Assembly: GCA_934162655.1 (NCBI GenBank)
Contig: CAKPJL010000005.1
Location: 1 to 62,095 of the forward strand
Length of the DNA stretch: 62,095 nucleotides
Reading direction: 5' to 3'
Origin: an uncultured Clostridia bacterium
Lineage (GTDB): Bacteria > Bacillota > Clostridia > TANB77 > CAG-465
Shown: piece by piece, positions 19 to 7,073 of the stretch
How positions within the stretch are numbered: the first letter of the stretch is position 1
Layout of the letters: every line of letters starts with the position of its first letter
Notes under the pieces: generated by a model
The model's database searches: none
What the model was told of the DNA's origin: nothing
Seen by the model: only the letters and a program-made list of their open reading frames with translations
Translations under genes and position numbers: made by a program

Positions 19-528
19 ATGTATAATAGTATTGGTAAACGAGATATATTAATTTTCCCTAAATTTGATAATATGAATATAATTGATGGAATTAGAAATA
101 AATACGATAGATTAGCAAATTTAGTAGAGCCACATATAACTCTAGCTTTTCCTTTTAAGGATAAAATAAGCAACAATGATTTAATTAATAAATTATCATC
201 GTTACTAAAAAATTACCATCCTTTTGATGTTACTTTTAAAGGAGTTTCTTTATCTGATGATAATTATATTTTATTAAATTGTATAAAAGGAGATAAAGAA
301 ATCTTAAAATTACACGATGATATATATATGGGAATAATCCCCCATCATTTAAGAAAATCAATACAGTACATTCCACATATAACGCTTGGTCAAGCTGATA
401 ATTTAGAAGATTTTCCTAGTTTCAATCATGAATTCATCACTACAATTGATGAAGTTTCTATTGAATTTATAGGTGAAAATGAAGAATCTATTATTATTAA
501 AAATATAAAATTAGGAGAAATATCATGA
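19..528 (+). CDS. 2H phosphoesterase superfamily protein (LigT / 2'-5' RNA ligase-like)
   Basis: AGGAGG RBS before the ATG. Twin HxT motifs (EPHITLAFPF and IPHITLGQ). Stop overlaps the next start (ATGA). Confidence 0.75.
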   Translation: MYNSIGKRDILIFPKFDNMNIIDGIRNKYDRLANLVEPHITLAFPFKDKISNNDLINKLSSLLKNYHPFDVTFKGVSLSDDNYILLNCIKGDKEILKLHDDIYMGIIPHHLRKSIQYIPHITLGQADNLEDFPSFNHEFITTIDEVSIEFIGENEESIIIKNIKLGEIS

Positions 529-1277
529 ATAATTTAGAATATTTAAATAAAATTTTGGAAATTAAAATAGATAGACCTCTAGGTAGTAAACATCCTAAGC
601 ATGGTTTTATTTATCCTGTAAATTATGGATATATTCCAAATACAATAAGTGGAGATGGTGAAGAATTAGATGCTTATGTTCTAGGAGCTTATGAACAATT
701 AGAAACTTTTACTGGGAAATGTATTGCAATAATTCACAGAACTAATGATAATGATGACAAACTAGTTATTGTGCCAGAAAGTAAAACATTTACTAACGAA
801 GAAATTAAAGTATTAACTGATTTTCAAGAACAATATTTTAAAAATATCATTTTAAGACCTGATAATTATATAAATTGGAATGAAAATATTCCTGAGTTAT
901 CTGTAACTAATTTAGAAAACAGCTTAAACTTTTATAAAACTGCCGGATTTAAAATAGAATATGATAGACCAGAAAATAATTTTGCATTTATTTCTTTAGG
1001 CAATATTCAATTTATGTTACAAGAGCTATCTGATAATGATAAGTGGAATGTAGGAGAATTAAAATATCCTTTCGGTAATGGAATAAACTTTCAATTAGAA
1101 GTTGAAAATGTTAATGAAATATATAATAATTTTAAAAGTAATAGTTATACAATAACTTTCGACATTGAAGAAAATTGGTATAGACAAGACGATAAAATGT
1201 TAGGAAATAAAGAATTTTTAATACAAGATCCTGATGGGTATTTACTAAGATTTATGCAAGATTTAGGTAAAAAATAA
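525..1277 (+). CDS. Fusion protein: inorganic-pyrophosphatase-like N-domain plus VOC/glyoxalase-like C-domain (copy A, intact)
   Basis: N-terminal KHPKHGFIYPVNYGYIPNT..DGEELDAYVLG resembles the family-I PPase core. The C-terminal half resembles the glyoxalase/bleomycin-resistance fold. Translationally coupled to the upstream ORF. Confidence 0.65.
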   Translation: MNNLEYLNKILEIKIDRPLGSKHPKHGFIYPVNYGYIPNTISGDGEELDAYVLGAYEQLETFTGKCIAIIHRTNDNDDKLVIVPESKTFTNEEIKVLTDFQEQYFKNIILRPDNYINWNENIPELSVTNLENSLNFYKTAGFKIEYDRPENNFAFISLGNIQFMLQELSDNDKWNVGELKYPFGNGINFQLEVENVNEIYNNFKSNSYTITFDIEENWYRQDDKMLGNKEFLIQDPDGYLLRFMQDLGKK

Positions 1278-1413
1278 GCATAAAAAAACAAATAAATTGT
1301 ATACAGTAAATATATGAAAATATATGAAAAAATAATCTAAACAATTTATTAAGGATATAAAACTGGTAAGAAAAGTTATGATGAATTTGATGAATGGTTA
1401 GATAGTAAAAATT

Positions 1414-1437
1414 AAAGAGCATTTTATCTTGCTCTTT
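1414..1437. terminator. Bidirectional hairpin between convergent genes
   Basis: AAAGAGC (1414-1420) pairs with GCTCTTT (1431-1437). A/T runs lie on both sides. Confidence 0.5.
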
Positions 1438-1448
1438 AATTTTTGCTT

Positions 1449-3686
1449 TTATTCAAATCTAATATCTTCTTCTGATTTATTGTAAATTTCCAACTTATTA
1501 TCTATTTCTATTTTTTCAGCCAACCAATGATTTAAAAAACATCTCTGTATAAATTCATCTATCCTATTTTGTCCATTAATTTCTTTTAATGTTACAACTA
1601 GTCCATATTTTATTTTATCTCTATTGTTTCTATTATTAAATCGATATGTTCTTATTAATTTTATACCCCATAATTTATTTTTATATGATTTTCTCTCTCC
1701 GTTTTGCATACTATATTTCTCTTTTATACATTTAGAATTATCCCATTTTCTAAATTCGTTTCTAGATCTTTTTTCGTTAACATATGTTCCGATTTCTCCT
1801 TGTCCATCATTATTTATAGGTTTAATTCCTTCTTCATTTTTTAGCCTACCTATTTTTAAGTCTATCTCTTCATTTGTATAATCAACACCTTGTTCTCTAC
1901 TACATGTTGTAAAATAACACATTGTAGCTTTAACTATGAATGGATATTTATCATCATGAATTGGTATTGGTAATGTATAGTTATAGGTCTCATATTTTTC
2001 AACATACCCAGACATAACAAACCTAATCTCATCATTTTTAGATTTTATTATATCATTAATATCTATTGGTACTACCCCATGTCCTATCAGTTCTATTTCT
2101 TCCTCTTTATATTTATTTCCCCACTTTTCAGCTGAATCTATTATAAGTGCTTTTGCTTCTTCTCTTGAAAATCCTAATATATGTATCAAATATGCCACCT
2201 TTCTTGCAATCCAAGGCGCAGCAAAAGAAGTACCAGACTCAAGATATTCTACATTATTAGCTCCAACTGTATTTATACATTCATTAATAGAAGTAGAATC
2301 ACCGCCATAATAACTCACATCTGGTTTTATATAAAATGATAATACTGGTCCTTTTCTTGAATAAGTAGTAGGTTTATCTAAGCTATTAACTGAATTTACA
2401 ACTAACGCATTTACAGAATCAGCTGGCGAAGCAATTTTTAAACTGTTTTTTGTGTTCTTTCTGTCATTTGTTCCTGCTATTATAAAAATAACATCATTGT
2501 CAGTCTGTATTTTATCAAGTAAATATGCAATTGGCGAAATAAAATTCTCTTCAATTTCAACATTAGCACCTAAAGACAAATTCCATACTTTTATGTCTCT
2601 ATTTTCAATAACAATATCATTAATTTGTTTAATAATATTAAATGCACTAAATCCATAATGTAATGCAACTCCAAAATGTCTTACTTTAAATCTCCCACAA
2701 TTATCATTTAATTTTGGATTTAATGCTGGACCATCCACTATTATTGATGATACTTTTGTTCCATGTTGATAATTTAATATATTTTCAACGTCCGGTAAAT
2801 TATCATCTAACATATTTTTTGATTTTACCCATTTTGAAAAATATGTTTTATCATCAAATAATGTATCTATTACTCCAATGGTTGGTTCATTGCTTGGATC
2901 TGGAATCAGCCTTCCGAATTTATTATCGTTTATTATAACATCTTCTTTGTTAATTGTCGAAAAATCTTTTACTGTCATTGATATTAGATATGGAGCTTTA
3001 GATTTAATTAAATCTATTTCATCTTTTTCTAATAAAACTGTGTTATTCTCAAATATTCTATTTCCAACTATATTAATATTTAAACTTTTTAATAATTTAA
3101 TTGTCTCTGTTCTTGTATCAAATAACGATACTATACTTCGTTCATTATAACTTCTACCGTTGTTGTCTAATCCTAAATACTCAATATAAAATGAATCTAC
3201 GACTAAATTTTTGAATCTACTACAACTCATTTCATATTTTTCCGGAAAATTTTCAGCATTTATTTTATCAATTTCTTCAAATGATAATTTTCCTTTATAT
3301 TCTTGGTTTAATATTTTTATTGCTTTATTTAGTTCCTCTATTGAATTAGTAATAGTTTCTTTTTTTACATAATGAGTAATAACATGTTTTTTATCATTTG
3401 TATATCTAGCTCCTACAACAGATTCATTTGGTGGATTTCCAGTTTCATATAATATACCTGCAATTCTATTTGTTTTTGAAATCATACGATTATAATGGAC
3501 ACTTATTAATGCCCCCTCAAAATAGTTTTGTGTTGCCCAAAATTTTGCTAACTCTTGTAATTCATTAACTCTTGCAAGTAAAGTTTCAACTGAAACTGTT
3601 CCATTAGATGAAATATTTCTACTTCCAATATTTCTATCAAAGTTTTTACTTTGAAATTGACCCTTTAATCTTAAAATACTATTCAT
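1449..3686 (-). CDS. S8 (subtilisin-like) serine peptidase with large N- and C-terminal extra domains; IetS-like
   Basis: Catalytic triad motifs in D-H-S order: GVIDTLFD, HGTKVSSII, SGTSFAAPW. ATG at 3686 is preferred over GTG at 3692 because AAGGAG lies 5 nt upstream. Confidence 0.85.
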   Translation of the reverse strand: MNSILRLKGQFQSKNFDRNIGSRNISSNGTVSVETLLARVNELQELAKFWATQNYFEGALISVHYNRMISKTNRIAGILYETGNPPNESVVGARYTNDKKHVITHYVKKETITNSIEELNKAIKILNQEYKGKLSFEEIDKINAENFPEKYEMSCSRFKNLVVDSFYIEYLGLDNNGRSYNERSIVSLFDTRTETIKLLKSLNINIVGNRIFENNTVLLEKDEIDLIKSKAPYLISMTVKDFSTINKEDVIINDNKFGRLIPDPSNEPTIGVIDTLFDDKTYFSKWVKSKNMLDDNLPDVENILNYQHGTKVSSIIVDGPALNPKLNDNCGRFKVRHFGVALHYGFSAFNIIKQINDIVIENRDIKVWNLSLGANVEIEENFISPIAYLLDKIQTDNDVIFIIAGTNDRKNTKNSLKIASPADSVNALVVNSVNSLDKPTTYSRKGPVLSFYIKPDVSYYGGDSTSINECINTVGANNVEYLESGTSFAAPWIARKVAYLIHILGFSREEAKALIIDSAEKWGNKYKEEEIELIGHGVVPIDINDIIKSKNDEIRFVMSGYVEKYETYNYTLPIPIHDDKYPFIVKATMCYFTTCSREQGVDYTNEEIDLKIGRLKNEEGIKPINNDGQGEIGTYVNEKRSRNEFRKWDNSKCIKEKYSMQNGERKSYKNKLWGIKLIRTYRFNNRNNRDKIKYGLVVTLKEINGQNRIDEFIQRCFLNHWLAEKIEIDNKLEIYNKSEEDIRFE

Positions 3687-3712
3687 TTCCACTCCTTAAT
3701 TTATTTGCTACA

Positions 3713-4726
3713 TTACTTTTTGAAACTCCTGTCAAAATTTCTATTTCTCTTACAGTAAAACCGCTCTTTTTTTAATTCTTCCAACTTCATATCTTCATCA
3801 TTTGCTCTAATAGAATAAAATAGCCTTTTTAAATAGTCATAAGGTTTTGATATATCACTAAATGCAATAGAAGTTTTAATTATATTTTTAAGTTCTCCAG
3901 GATATGGAATATTTTTAGATAAATTTAATATTTTATAAAACAATCTCTTGTTTTTTCTAAGATTAGGATAATTTGATAAGTATTTATCTAACATAAATTC
4001 TGAAATCTTTATTAAATCTTCCCTTTCATATTTATTGAAAGAAATAACGGTATCAAATCTTCTTGATAAAGCTTTATCTATAGATTTATATAAATTTGTA
4101 GTTGCTATTAATACTACATTCTTATTTAAATTATCTAATTCTTTTATTATTGATGATGTGACTCTTCCCATTTCTCTTAAATCATTTGAATTTATTCTAT
4201 CTAGTGCAATAGCATCAATTTCATCAAAAAGAATTAATGCTTTTTTAGGATTTGGTAAAGAATTTATTTCTTCAAATAGTTCTTTTATATTTTTTGAAGT
4301 TTGTCCTAATTTACTATCAATTACATAATTAAATTCTACTGAAAATAAGTCTCTATCCAATATTCGAGCGATTTGTTTTACTGTTTCAGTTTTTCCTGTT
4401 CCTGGCGCTCCTTCAAAAAGAAATTTATTCATTTTTAAATTTCCATTAATAGCATTTATAATTCCTATAGTTTCTTCTTCTAATTTTTCTGGCAAAAACA
4501 AACTATCATTTGTAATAATAACTTTTTCAAGAAAGTTTGTATTGTATCCAAATTCTTGTGGTAAGAGTACATTAGTATTAGATACTAATCCTAATATATA
4601 CTCTGATAATTGATAATCTCCATCTTTTTCAAATTCTCGAGCAATTGTTCCTGCTTGCTTGATGAAACCATCATTATCATTTTCAAAATGTAATTTTATT
4701 AAATTTAAAACATCTTTTTTTTTCAT
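3713..4726 (-). CDS. Classical AAA+ ATPase; IetA-like; C-terminus apparently frameshifted
   Basis: Walker A is GAPGTGKT and Walker B is LILFDEIDA. Sensor is ATTN and the Arg finger region is SRRFD. The last ~17 codons look like out-of-frame reading after an A7 run (3767-3773). Confidence 0.85.
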   Translation of the reverse strand: MKKKDVLNLIKLHFENDNDGFIKQAGTIAREFEKDGDYQLSEYILGLVSNTNVLLPQEFGYNTNFLEKVIITNDSLFLPEKLEEETIGIINAINGNLKMNKFLFEGAPGTGKTETVKQIARILDRDLFSVEFNYVIDSKLGQTSKNIKELFEEINSLPNPKKALILFDEIDAIALDRINSNDLREMGRVTSSIIKELDNLNKNVVLIATTNLYKSIDKALSRRFDTVISFNKYEREDLIKISEFMLDKYLSNYPNLRKNKRLFYKILNLSKNIPYPGELKNIIKTSIAFSDISKPYDYLKRLFYSIRANDEDMKLEELKKERFYCKRNRNFDRSFKK

Positions 4727-4805
4727 ACGTAAACCTCCTATTACATACTATCATTCATGTGGACAAAAATCAATATAATTGGACAAAGTTTTTTACATTT
4801 TTCTA

Positions 4806-4834
4806 TTGTTTTTTGTTAACTGCTATGTTACAAT
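4806..4834 (+). promoter_or_regulatory. Candidate sigma-A promoter for the integrase
   Basis: TTGTTT (4806-4811), 17-nt spacer, then TACAAT (4829-4834) preceded by TGT. It is embedded in a 9-bp inverted repeat, TTGTTAACT (4813-4821) and AGTTAACAA (4841-4849). Confidence 0.35.
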
Positions 4835-4899
4835 ATCAATAGTTAACAATTGTATTCTCCCCACCCATTAAGTAACTCGAAAGGAGGTGAAACAGAGTA

Positions 4900-6087
4900 A
4901 TGGCCGGGAGTATTGAAAAAAGAGGAAAAGATAGTTACAGGCTAATAGTTTGTCATGGTTTTAATTTAGATGGAAAGCCTATACGTCATACAAAAACTAT
5001 TCATGGAACTAAAGCACAAGCTAAAATTGAACTTGCAAAGTTTGTTGCTGAAGTAGAACAAGGTACAGTTATTGAAGGTAAATCAATAACATTTAAAGAG
5101 TTTACTGAAATTTGGAAAAGAGATTATGGCTCTAAAGAATTAGCACCTTCTACTTATAGAAGATATTTAGGAATGTTAGAATCTAGAATCCTACCTTATC
5201 TTGGACATTTTAAACTAGATAAGATCAAACCAACTGATATAATGAAGTTCCATGATATGTTGGATAAAGATACTCAAATAAGACGTATTAAATGTAACAA
5301 TGGCTATAGAACATTAAAACCTTTATCTCAAAAAACTATATTAGAACACCATAGACTAATTAGAGCCATGCTACACAAAGCAGTATATTGGCAATTATTA
5401 TTTACTAATCCATGTGAAAGAGTTCAAGCACCTAGAAGTAGAAAAGCAAAAAGAAAATATTATGATGATAAACAATGCAAAGTTCTTCTTTCAAACCTTA
5501 ATAAATTGTCTACAGATAACATTAAGTATAAAACAGCAATAACTTTAACATTGTTTACTGGAGTAAGGCTTGGTGAACTTATGGGATTAGAATGGTCTGA
5601 CATTGATTTCACAAACGGAATTGTTAGTATTAATAAATCAAGTCAATATTTATCTGATAAAGGTGTCTTTACAAAAACACCTAAAACAGAAAGTTCAATA
5701 AGAGATGTTGCAATTCCAGATTTTGTTGTTTCTTTGCTTGAAGAATATAAATCATGGTATGAAGATCAAAAATCAATTTACAACGAATTATGGATTAATT
5801 CAGATAGGTTATTTGTTCAGTCAGATGGTAAGCCTATGCACCCATCTACTATTAGTAAATGGTTTGTTAAGTTTGTTAAAGAAATTGGTCTACCTGTAAT
5901 TAATTTTCACGGTTTAAGGCATACAAATGCTACTTTGCTAATATCGCAAAATATAGATGTAGCAGTTGTTGCTGCAAGACTAGGTCATGCACAAATTACT
6001 ACAACATTTAATTTTTATGTGCATCCTATCATTTCCCACAATAAGAGTGCAGGAAATGTATTACAAAATTTATTAATACCAAACTAA
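4900..6087 (+). CDS. Tyrosine recombinase / phage-type integrase
   Basis: GGAGGTG RBS. Catalytic signature: GVRLGEL (Arg), HGLRHTNATL (H-x-x-R), LGHAQITTTFNFYVH (Tyr). The N-terminal arm-binding-like domain resembles Tn916-family integrases. Confidence 0.9.
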   Translation: MAGSIEKRGKDSYRLIVCHGFNLDGKPIRHTKTIHGTKAQAKIELAKFVAEVEQGTVIEGKSITFKEFTEIWKRDYGSKELAPSTYRRYLGMLESRILPYLGHFKLDKIKPTDIMKFHDMLDKDTQIRRIKCNNGYRTLKPLSQKTILEHHRLIRAMLHKAVYWQLLFTNPCERVQAPRSRKAKRKYYDDKQCKVLLSNLNKLSTDNIKYKTAITLTLFTGVRLGELMGLEWSDIDFTNGIVSINKSSQYLSDKGVFTKTPKTESSIRDVAIPDFVVSLLEEYKSWYEDQKSIYNELWINSDRLFVQSDGKPMHPSTISKWFVKFVKEIGLPVINFHGLRHTNATLLISQNIDVAVVAARLGHAQITTTFNFYVHPIISHNKSAGNVLQNLLIPN

Positions 6088-6325: not shown

Positions 6326-6370
6326 TGGTTGCGGGGGATAGACTCGAACTATCGACCTTCGGGTTATGAG
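6326..6370 (-). other. tRNA-Met/fMet (CAT) 3' half remnant (att-like relic)
   Basis: The reverse complement reads CTCATAACCCGAAGGTCGATAGTTCGAGTCTATCCCCCGCAACCA. This gives the anticodon loop, 3' anticodon stem, variable region, T arm and acceptor 3' strand plus CCA. The 5' half is absent. Confidence 0.7.
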
Positions 6371-7073
6371 ACCTATGGGTAACAAACATCCAAAGCATGG
6401 ATTTATTTATCCAATAAATTATGGTTATGTATCTAATACAGTAAGTGGTGATGGTGAAGAATTAGATGCTTATGTTTTAGGAGTTTATGAACCATTAGAT
6501 ACTTTTACTGGAAAATGTATTGCAATAATTCATAGAACAAATGATAATGATGATAAATTAATTATTGTTCCTGAAAATAAAACATTTACCAATGAAGAAA
6601 TTAAGGTTTTGACTGATTTTCAAGAACAGTATTTTAAAAGTACAATTTTAAGACCTAATGATTATATAAATTGGAATGAAAATATTCCTGAGTTATCAGT
6701 AACCAATTTAGAAAACAGCTTAAACTTTTATAAAACTGCCGGATTTGAAGTAAAATATAATAGACCAGAAGATAAATTTGCATTCATAACTTTAAACAAT
6801 ATTCAATTTATGTTACAAGAGTTATCTGATACTGATAAATAGAATGTTGGAGAATTAAAATATCCTTTCGGTAATGGAATCAATTTTCAATTAGAAGTCG
6901 AGGATGTTGATAAAATATATAATAATTTTAAAAATAACAATTACGCAATAACTTTTGATATTGAAGAAAATTGGTATAGGCAAGATAATAAAATGTTAGT
7001 AAATAAAGAATTTTTAATACAAGACCCTGATGGATACTTATTAAGATTTATGCAAGATTTAGGAGAAAAATAA
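6369..7073 (+). pseudogene. 5'-truncated, nonsense-interrupted copy B of the PPase-like/VOC fusion gene
   Basis: Collinear with codons ~22-250 of 525..1277, about 85 percent aa identity by hand alignment. TAG at 6840-6842 replaces the TGG at 1044-1046 of copy A. The reading frame otherwise continues to TAA at 7071-7073. Confidence 0.8.

Follow-up and report, generated by a model that had tools for sequence, protein, structure and literature searches.

The contig of an uncultured Clostridia bacterium analysed here carries, beside an integrase gene, an AAA+ ATPase gene followed by a gene for a subtilisin-like protease, and the end of the ATPase gene is out of frame. Is this pair a working IetAS module, and what does the frameshift do to it? 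The stretch examined (the window) comprises 62,095 nt, CAKPJL010000005.1 positions 1 to 62,095 (assembly GCA_934162655.1). An earlier note, made from the bare sequence, had described an ATPase and then a 745-aa protease, and both open reading frames were found, on the minus strand, where it had placed them. We consider it likely that the locus is an IetAS two-gene toxin-antitoxin/abortive-infection module, which an integrative element has in the cargo at its integrase end, and that its IetA allele, which lacks the C-terminal tail, is derepressed and has kept the ability to neutralise IetS. The features concerned are:

3713-4726, minus strand: ietA, AAA+ ATPase, 337 aa as encoded, last 18 codons out of frame
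3767-3773, minus strand: A7 homopolymer in which the +1-nt shift of the ietA frame occurred
3679-3766, minus strand: remnant of the IetA C-terminal tail, SGFTVREIEILTGVSKSNVANKLRSGNE followed by a stop, still open but out of the ietA frame; its TAG overlaps the ietS ATG
1449-3686, minus strand: ietS, S8 subtilisin-like protease, 745 aa, ATG at 3686

Both genes are read from the same strand, the ATPase first, with a gap of 26 nt as encoded. The ietS ATG at 3686 is preceded by AAGGAG; the mechanical list of open reading frames instead gives a protein of 747 aa from an upstream GTG.

The gene pair is a divergent member of the IetAS family

Searches with PADLOC profiles ranked IetA first for the ATPase and IetS first for the protease, which supports the IetAS-like architecture suggested by the earlier note. 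As encoded, the ATPase matched PDLC02196 with E=8.5e-41 over profile positions 5-301 of 374; with the frame repaired, the match improved to E=2.8e-42 and coverage reached positions 5-370 of 374. The protease matched PDLC02197 (E=4.8e-68), residues 190-735 aligning to profile positions 177-748 of 749. IteA_antiphage and IteS_antiphage were the top NCBIfam models, and judged by its scores the pair is homologous to this curated type but not an equivalog of it. Because the PADLOC and NCBIfam alignments of IetS begin no earlier than residue 190-241, its N-terminal region appears to be subfamily-specific. The best-scoring profiles were two phage/prophage protein families of the PHROGs library, phrog_3757 for IetA (E=1e-63, residues 1-325) and phrog_3964 for IetS (E=1.4e-121, residues 50-736). 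PHROGs gives no function for either family and had not previously linked them to IetAS; the link is made here.

A large protein database held 6764 IetA-like and 7681 IetS-like homologues. The best 120 of the IetA homologues were all 343-360 aa long and covered 96-100% of the repaired query (99-100% in all but one). Among the best 120 of the IetS homologues, 118 were full length (737-751 aa), and the two shorter ones had 679 aa (91% coverage) and 729 aa (99% coverage). Hosts among the best 120 included Clostridia, Bacilli, Fusobacterium, Streptococcus, Mollicutes, Sulfuricurvum and others, and ietA and ietS were adjacent in every locus read. Full-length IetS relatives with 40-48% identity occur on plasmids of Clostridium perfringens, Carnobacterium and Macrococcus and in Mesomycoplasma (39.8% identical, 100% coverage); a Metamycoplasma IetA-like protein is 59% identical, and Mollicute homologues overall are 40-59% identical. 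The sole Agrobacterium match, on pAtG3_79a and not on pTiC58, shares 24% identity in IetS over residues 265-701 only. Sequence comparison thus shows the pair to belong to the IetAS family, in a divergent subfamily, and the interpretation in the earlier note is largely supported.

A pair of an ATPase and an S8 protease was reportedly described as the ietAS antiphage system by Gao et al. in 2020. IetAS homologues of E. coli and B. cereus have been tested, and the founding plasmid-stability IetA/IetS toxin-antitoxin pair sits on pTiC58. The systems modelled as IetAS by PADLOC and as IteAS by NCBIfam likewise combine an AAA+ ATPase with a downstream S8 protease of ~740 aa, with a homologous AAA core, catalytic triad and C-terminal domain; the present pair differs from them in scoring below the equivalog cut-offs and in its subfamily-specific IetS N-terminal region. 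In Agrobacterium, IetA and IetS are an ATPase antitoxin and a subtilase toxin encoded by overlapping genes, as in the intact alleles of the present family. TRIP13/Pch2 of CBASS is also an AAA+ remodeller, one that keeps an immune effector pathway inactive, but the analogy is confined to the logic: the PADLOC TRIP13 model matched IetA at E=4.4e-17, much weaker than the IetA models, and no HORMA or CD-NTase genes accompany the pair.

In Mycoplasma, an AAA-ATPase (353 aa) and a subtilase (757 aa) form a functional toxin-antitoxin pair, and deletion of the antitoxin alone is lethal (PMC8562856). The M. mycoides TA132/133 pair (PMC8562856) has the gene order of the present locus, intact alleles have no intergenic gap, and the proteins are of similar size (353/757 aa versus 348, as repaired, and 745 aa); both loci lie in genomic islands of low-GC hosts. 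The Mollicute homologues that were aligned, those of Mesomycoplasma and Metamycoplasma, match over their full length. The M. mycoides pair was studied as a toxin-antitoxin system and not as phage defence, and the present copy differs from it in its frameshifted ATPase tail. Other IetAS homologues defend against phage (PMC13069673; bioRxiv 10.1101/2022.08.27.505566). They do so by abortive infection, which is triggered by the SPbeta gene yosG (bioRxiv 10.1101/2022.08.27.505566); defence requires protease activity, an ietA mutant could not be cloned, and the molecular mechanism was still called unknown in 2026 (PMC13069673).

The ietA frameshift is real and fixed in a young lineage

The A-run frameshift suspected in the earlier note was confirmed as one extra A at 3767-3773. 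Removal of one A from the A7 run restored a 348-aa IetA ending ...LKKSGFTVREIEILTGVSKSNVANKLRSGNE, and the TAG of the repaired gene overlaps the ietS ATG by 8 nt (ATGAATAG); the overlap that the note had seen in the repaired frame is therefore the same as in intact relatives. In L021, the nearest intact allele (protein 97% identical), the sequence is GAATTTAAAAAGAGTGG, against GAATTAAAAAAAGAGCGG in the window, so that a T-to-A change and one additional A separate it from the A7 run. The frameshift exchanges the last 29 IetA residues for 18 unrelated ones and ends ietA 26 nt before ietS. In relatives with a 75-79% identical IetS, IetA is 348-349 aa long and ends ...LKKYGFTVREIEILTGVSKSNVSKKLREKNE, its stop overlapping the ietS ATG by 8 or 4 nt. 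The full-length tail is present in all of the best 120 homologues and lost in the window allele. The AAA+ module (aa 1-319) is untouched.

Sequencing error was ruled out as the cause. Eight independent metagenome or run assemblies/contigs showed the identical A7 run, and 4 further loci, on other contigs (L023) or on other stretches of the same contigs, contain an ietA-ietS stretch of the same length and near-identical sequence. The 90% identity cluster comprises six distinct 337-aa variants, the window form occurring in 25 contigs, and three intact 348-aa forms; all nine members were read, and the six with the present backbone all have A7. The same frameshift allele occurs in no fewer than 13 assemblies, and by contig the count is 35 or more, with at least three flanking contexts. 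The frameshift is thus real and fixed in its lineage. This lineage is young, since twelve of its loci differ by 0-1 single-nucleotide polymorphism (SNP) over the 3278-nt ietAS stretch; at 0-1 SNP per 3.3 kb, selection analysis within it had no power.

A shift within a homopolymer could also be a regulatory device, in which phase variation, transcriptional slippage or +1 ribosomal frameshifting at the A7 tract yields both forms of IetA, and the tail frame downstream is indeed still free of stops and of decay as far as the overlapping TAG. We regard this as highly improbable. A collection of 15 billion sequences did not contain the exact A6-repaired protein; nothing thus points to on/off switching, and phase variation was ruled out on this ground. 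All six cluster members with the present backbone have A7, as noted above, and the 12 further loci, A7 being read in 8 of them, have the same length with 0-1 substitutions, leaving no room for a change in tract length. Moreover, seven As are short for efficient slippage.

A separate observation concerns L062, where the ietA frame at 3001-4025 is interrupted after 181 codons although the locus matches residues 1-346; it may represent a second, independent disruption of ietA.

The lost tail resembles a helix-turn-helix and is conserved together with promoter repeats

The family consensus of the tail is F-T-[VI]-R-E-[IM]-E-x-L-T-G-x-S-K-S-x-V-[SA]-R-x-L-K-E, and residues R326, E329, L331, G333, S335, K336 and S337 were invariant in 39 diverse sequences. 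Pfam returned nothing for the tail beyond Sigma70_r4_2 at E=0.03-0.13. A profile of the tail gave no more than weak matches in the PDB, and those aligned over the helix-turn-helix (HTH) core were DNA-binding HTHs, namely AlpA (E=0.018), a PhiH1 repressor-like protein, the LacI HTH and SpoIIID. From these comparisons the ~30-residue tail appears to be HTH-like. The ATPase of pAtG3_79a likewise ends in an HTH-like tail.

A candidate target lies in front of the operon:

4760-4785, minus strand: operator-like direct repeat TGTCCA-N14-TGTCCA, around the -35 TTGATT of the predicted ietA promoter

The second TGTCCA copy falls in the spacer before TAGTAT. In the whole window this repeat has a single occurrence, against an expectation of 0. 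All close relatives carry the identical 26-mer irrespective of their upstream gene (integrase, relaxase or peptidase), and the remaining intergenic DNA upstream of ietA is not conserved among them. We extended the survey to 45 loci with 39-97% IetA identity, including a metagenome scan and an Aeromonadales metagenome-assembled genome. An exact TGTCC[CA] pair, 20-21 nt from start to start and no more than 150 nt upstream of ietA, was present in 35 of the 45 loci, and in nine more an exact copy was joined, at that spacing, by a near-exact one. Elsewhere in the same loci (627 kb, both strands) no such pair was found. The family promoter can be summarised as TGTCCCA-atATTGACa-N-TGTCCCA-N6-8-TATAAT. 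In the Aeromonadales genome (L018), three TGTCCCAGAA...CTTGTTGT repeats with a 21-nt period lie ~110 nt upstream of the ietA. The presence of the repeat element, here in three copies and not two, upstream of a gammaproteobacterial ietA shows that it crosses phyla. The pAtG3_79a homologue has an inverted repeat upstream in place of the TGTCCCA direct repeats.

Tail and repeats also vary together. An Arg in the putative recognition helix (V-S/A-R; IDR in one case) was found in all 35 full-length loci with TGTCCCA repeats, and in the TGTCCA clade of the window it is replaced by Lys or Asn. Such covariation is consistent with the loss of an Arg-G contact. We infer that the IetA tail may be an autorepressor domain acting on the paired repeats; no paper describing such autorepression was found in the literature searched, which did not cover the original pTiC58 paper. 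The wider proposal is tentative, and we lean towards it slightly less than we doubt it: IetA would be a bifunctional AAA+ antitoxin-repressor whose invariant HTH tail reads paired TGTCCCA repeats, spaced by two helical turns, across its own -35 in IetAS of many phyla, and in the tail-less window allele the repressor would have been separated from the neutraliser.

As one more IetAS member the present copy adds little. The conserved repeats and the HTH tail together suggest how the ietAS operon is regulated, and a natural, widespread tail-less allele can separate the need for the tail in neutralisation from its need in regulation. If IetA were indeed a bifunctional antitoxin-repressor, the allele would be a ready-made separation-of-function variant for the restraint, by an AAA+ ATPase, of a subtilase with a structurally novel 262-aa domain.

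The ATPase core of IetA is intact

All ATPase motifs quoted in the earlier note are present: GAPGTGKT at aa 106-113 (4388-4411), DEID at 168-171 (4214-4225), ATTN at 208-211 (4094-4105) and RRFD at 222-225 (4052-4063). The Pfam AAA domain was matched far beyond chance (E=7.7e-26, aa 103-230). The closest solved relatives in a PDB sequence search were the Cdc48/p97/Afg2/VAT rings (E~1e-23); no IetA or IetS structure could be reached by sequence in the PDB copy searched. Walker A, Walker B, sensor-1 N211 and the Arg fingers R222/R223 were invariant in 39 homologues, as was the pore-loop Leu-Gly (L140, G141), with K139 conserved in at least 90%. The pore loop has Leu in place of the aromatic residue usual in most unfoldases, as does p97 D1. 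Based on the kinship with Cdc48/p97/VAT and on the invariant pore-loop, nucleotide-binding and Arg-finger residues, the core fits a protein-remodelling role. IetA is a classical-clade AAA+ ATPase and, by analogy with its homologues, would serve as the antitoxin component.

IetS is a protease without decay and with an unusual N-terminal region

The protease motifs quoted in the note were found as well: GVIDT at 271-275 (2862-2876), HGTKV at 308-312 (2751-2765) and SGTSFAAP at 484-491 (2214-2237). Together with the oxyanion Asn in AGTN 404-407, they provide the catalytic residues D274, H308, N407 and S487. All family-invariant columns of IetS are kept. Nine deviations at near-invariant columns, all conservative, are in the same range as in relatives with intact partners, and IetS is without decay. 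Pfam Peptidase_S8 was matched far beyond chance at aa 268-524 only (E=6.8e-34); the flanks had no Pfam match, the N-terminal one not even at E<=10. The regions of the protein, all on the minus strand, can be delimited as follows:

IetS residues 1-~262 (N-terminal 262 aa, 2901-3686): putative regulatory region, two alpha/beta sub-domains, subfamily-specific
IetS residues ~268-548: S8 domain
IetS residues ~550-745: C-terminal beta-sandwich

An AlphaFold2 model of full-length IetS, built on an alignment of 64 sequences, had a mean predicted local distance difference test score (pLDDT) of 81.9 and a predicted template modelling score of 0.85. With Foldseek, its best match in the PDB was 3afg, ProN-Tk-SP (E=4.8e-19, 585 aligned columns covering propeptide, S8 domain and beta-jelly-roll), followed by KP-43 and SubHal, two further subtilases with a beta domain at the C-terminus. 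Because Foldseek aligns Tk-SP, KP-43 and SubHal over this part, the C-terminal ~195 residues of the model are assigned as a beta-sandwich of the kind associated with subtilases, extended at its end by a short helix-strand. Of the two flanks that the earlier note could not assign, the C-terminal one thus has a structural counterpart, and the N-terminal one has none. Modelled alone, residues 1-262 formed two alpha/beta sub-domains (pLDDT 83.8), and Foldseek gave no significant match for them: the best E values were 0.2 in the PDB, where the weak hits were tandem ferredoxin/ACT-like, and 0.15 in BFVD. Tk-SP, KP-43 and SubHal (PDB 3afg, 1wmd, 5fax) share with IetS the S8 fold followed by a C-terminal beta-sandwich/jelly-roll. 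However, they are secreted degradative enzymes, whereas IetS has an extra 262-aa N-terminal region, an ATPase partner and no signal peptide in its sequence, and is predicted to be cytoplasmic.

The first eleven residues of IetS, MNxLLxLKGxF, are almost invariant. In 10-residue blocks, residues 1-10 and 11-20 reached pLDDT values of 87 and 71 in the full-length model versus 34 and 43 in the isolated domain. Because confidence is high only in the full-length context, the N-terminal peptide probably docks on the S8 or C-terminal part in the predicted fold. The N-terminal domain and this peptide are the obvious candidates for the part acted on by IetA or by a phage trigger.

A tail-less but functional module is the preferred interpretation

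In the mechanism that we propose, IetS would be the toxic effector, a cytoplasmic protease with an intact triad, and IetA a single-ring AAA+ antitoxin of the Cdc48/FtsH type that keeps IetS harmless using ATP. These roles were shown genetically in homologues (PMC8562856, PMC13069673); the manner in which IetA restrains IetS is our inference. A phage-encoded trigger would relieve neutralisation, and proteolysis by IetS would then halt the cell before the phage completes its cycle. The same toxin-antitoxin property would make the pair an addiction module that stabilises its island. In intact alleles, the HTH tail of IetA would bind the two TGTCC(C)A repeats bracketing the -35 and autorepress the operon, and ietA and ietS would be translationally coupled via the ATGAATAG overlap. 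Loss of the tail in the window allele would abolish autorepression and raise unregulated expression of ietAS, with neutralisation retained. Since the allele is viable and spreading with IetS fully intact, the antitoxin function has probably been kept in the 337-aa IetA. Antiphage activity of this copy would be expected by analogy with its homologues.

Alternatively, the frameshift may have inactivated the system, leaving ietA a pseudogene and the pair a decaying remnant, as the loss of the family-wide 29-residue tail and of the 8-nt translational coupling with ietS would allow. This is very unlikely in our view, because loss of IetA with an intact IetS was lethal or unclonable in the homologues tested (PMC8562856, PMC13069673). 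The allele persists in the contigs and contexts counted above with IetS fully intact, the whole AAA+ module (aa 1-319) is unaltered, and ietS retains a strong Shine-Dalgarno sequence of its own; the lineage is too young for decay to show either way.

A number of points speak against our interpretation of a tail-less, derepressed and still neutralised module. The pair scores far below the NCBIfam equivalog cut-offs, with 115.9 bits versus 510 for IteA_antiphage and 175.8 bits versus 900 for IteS_antiphage. Defence, toxicity and neutralisation are extrapolated to this locus from homologues with 24-59% identity, and to our knowledge it is not known for any IetAS how the AAA+ ATPase neutralises the protease. 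Members of the frameshift lineage are almost clonal, which makes their persistence a poor guide to long-term fitness, and the module could have been disabled recently without a trace in the sequence. As for regulation, the proposed binding of the tail to the repeats is read from their co-conservation, and the covariation of the Arg with the C of the repeats amounts to a single evolutionary event; the repeats could instead bind another factor or be an unusually conserved promoter.

The module appears to be cargo of an integrative element

The integrase that the earlier note had placed beside the pair was confirmed (Pfam Phage_integrase E=7.8e-29), and it is divergent from ietA. The note had described a small integrase-bearing island with defence cargo; integrase and defence-related cargo were found, but the island is not small, as the window starts inside the element. 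What had looked like a small island is the integrase end of a larger element running off the window. The features of this end are:

4900-6087, plus strand: tyrosine integrase (int), Pfam Phage_integrase and Phage_int_SAM_3, phrog_1 integrase E=2.2e-78
6326-6370, minus strand: 45-mer resembling the 3' half of tRNA-fMet, CTCATAACCCGAAGG...CGCAACCA, putative att core and right-hand element end
525-1277, plus strand: pyrophosphatase-glyoxalase fusion (Pfam), 250 aa, element backbone
19-528, plus strand: LigT-like 2H phosphoesterase (Pfam), 169 aa, element backbone

The 45-mer is unique in the window. Seven further int-linked loci (L003, L004, L013, L020, L022-L024, L026) have it ~240 nt beyond the stop of int, in three T-stem variants that keep base pairing; in L001 it was not matched at up to 9 substitutions. 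Synteny between sister contigs stops at the 45-mer, hence its designation as the putative right-hand boundary. No intact tRNA, second copy of the 45-mer or left-hand element end was found in the window or the fetched loci. Sister contigs share a block consisting of the 45-mer, int, ietA, ietS, the pyrophosphatase-glyoxalase and LigT-like genes, DUF6076, HTH_17, Phage_rep_org_N and TnpV, followed by variable cargo. In a window-like contig (L022) this cargo is a type II nicking endonuclease with a fused methyltransferase, and in other contigs PDC-S61, a PDC-S41/AbiO/Nhi-like helicase and a Ppl-like protein. By gene content, the carrier appears to be an integrative mobile element with restriction-modification and candidate defence cargo.

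The pair was never at a conserved housekeeping position in the loci read, and homologous pairs lay throughout on mobile or defence DNA. A role as housekeeping protease/chaperone was ruled out, as the neighbours differ per clade (integrase, relaxase/recombinase, plasmids, defence genes). In L010 the ietAS cassette lies beside relaxase/recombinase genes, and in L009 beside a SLFN-like helicase and an Mrr nuclease. Gene neighbourhoods thus indicate that the cassette, with its promoter repeats, also moves independently of int.

The mobile context bears on another explanation, namely that the pair is primarily an addiction system that stabilises its element by post-segregational killing and plays no appreciable part in phage defence in this host. 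The first description of IetAS was as a toxin-antitoxin system that stabilises a plasmid (as cited in PMC13069673, PMC8562856); the pair directly adjoins the integrase of its element and travels with it, and relatives are found beside relaxase/recombinase genes and on plasmids. Stabilisation of an island or plasmid is as well documented for IetAS as defence. However, the two roles are compatible, the homologues cited above do defend against phage, and the other variable cargo of the element consists of restriction-modification and candidate defence genes. We therefore regard addiction as the main function as unlikely and prefer the toxin-antitoxin/abortive-infection module proposed above.

Further features of the element and its surroundings

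The two backbone genes overlap by 4 nt and are always linked to int-ietAS in sister contigs; neither had PADLOC or PHROG matches of note. 2H phosphoesterases include degraders of cyclic-nucleotide immune signals, and the LigT-like and pyrophosphatase pair could be a counter-defence or nucleotide-signal module of the element.

An inverted repeat lies between the divergent int and ietA:

4813-4849, strand unspecified: TTGTTAACT-N19-AGTTAACAA, perfect 9-bp arms

Only integrase-linked relatives (the window, L013, L020 and L021) keep it, as GTTAAC arms, and it is therefore assigned to the int side rather than to the ietAS cassette. The repeat may serve to regulate the integrase or excision. At 1404-1447, between the convergent pyrophosphatase and ietS genes, a hairpin with an 18-bp stem and a T-run is probably a bidirectional terminator; it is the sole terminator-like site in 1250-5000.

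A second, truncated pyrophosphatase-glyoxalase copy at 6369-7060 begins immediately after the 45-mer and is 87% identical to 573-1264, at a constant offset of 5796 nt. Its first ~16 codons are gone and a stop stands in place of a Trp (open reading frame 6366-6842); it was probably left behind by a related element that came earlier. A 5.8-kb island bounded by this duplication (573-1264 and 6369-7060) was considered and ruled out, since the sister contigs show the pyrophosphatase and LigT-like genes to be backbone; the probable boundary is the tRNA-fMet-like 45-mer. In L003 (1-5361) and L023 (16352-20510), another element of the DUF6076/HTH_17 type, inverted and without an integrase of its own, lies beyond the 45-mer and carries a caspase-like (Peptidase_C14) gene, which suggests arrays or composites of related elements at the 45-mer site.

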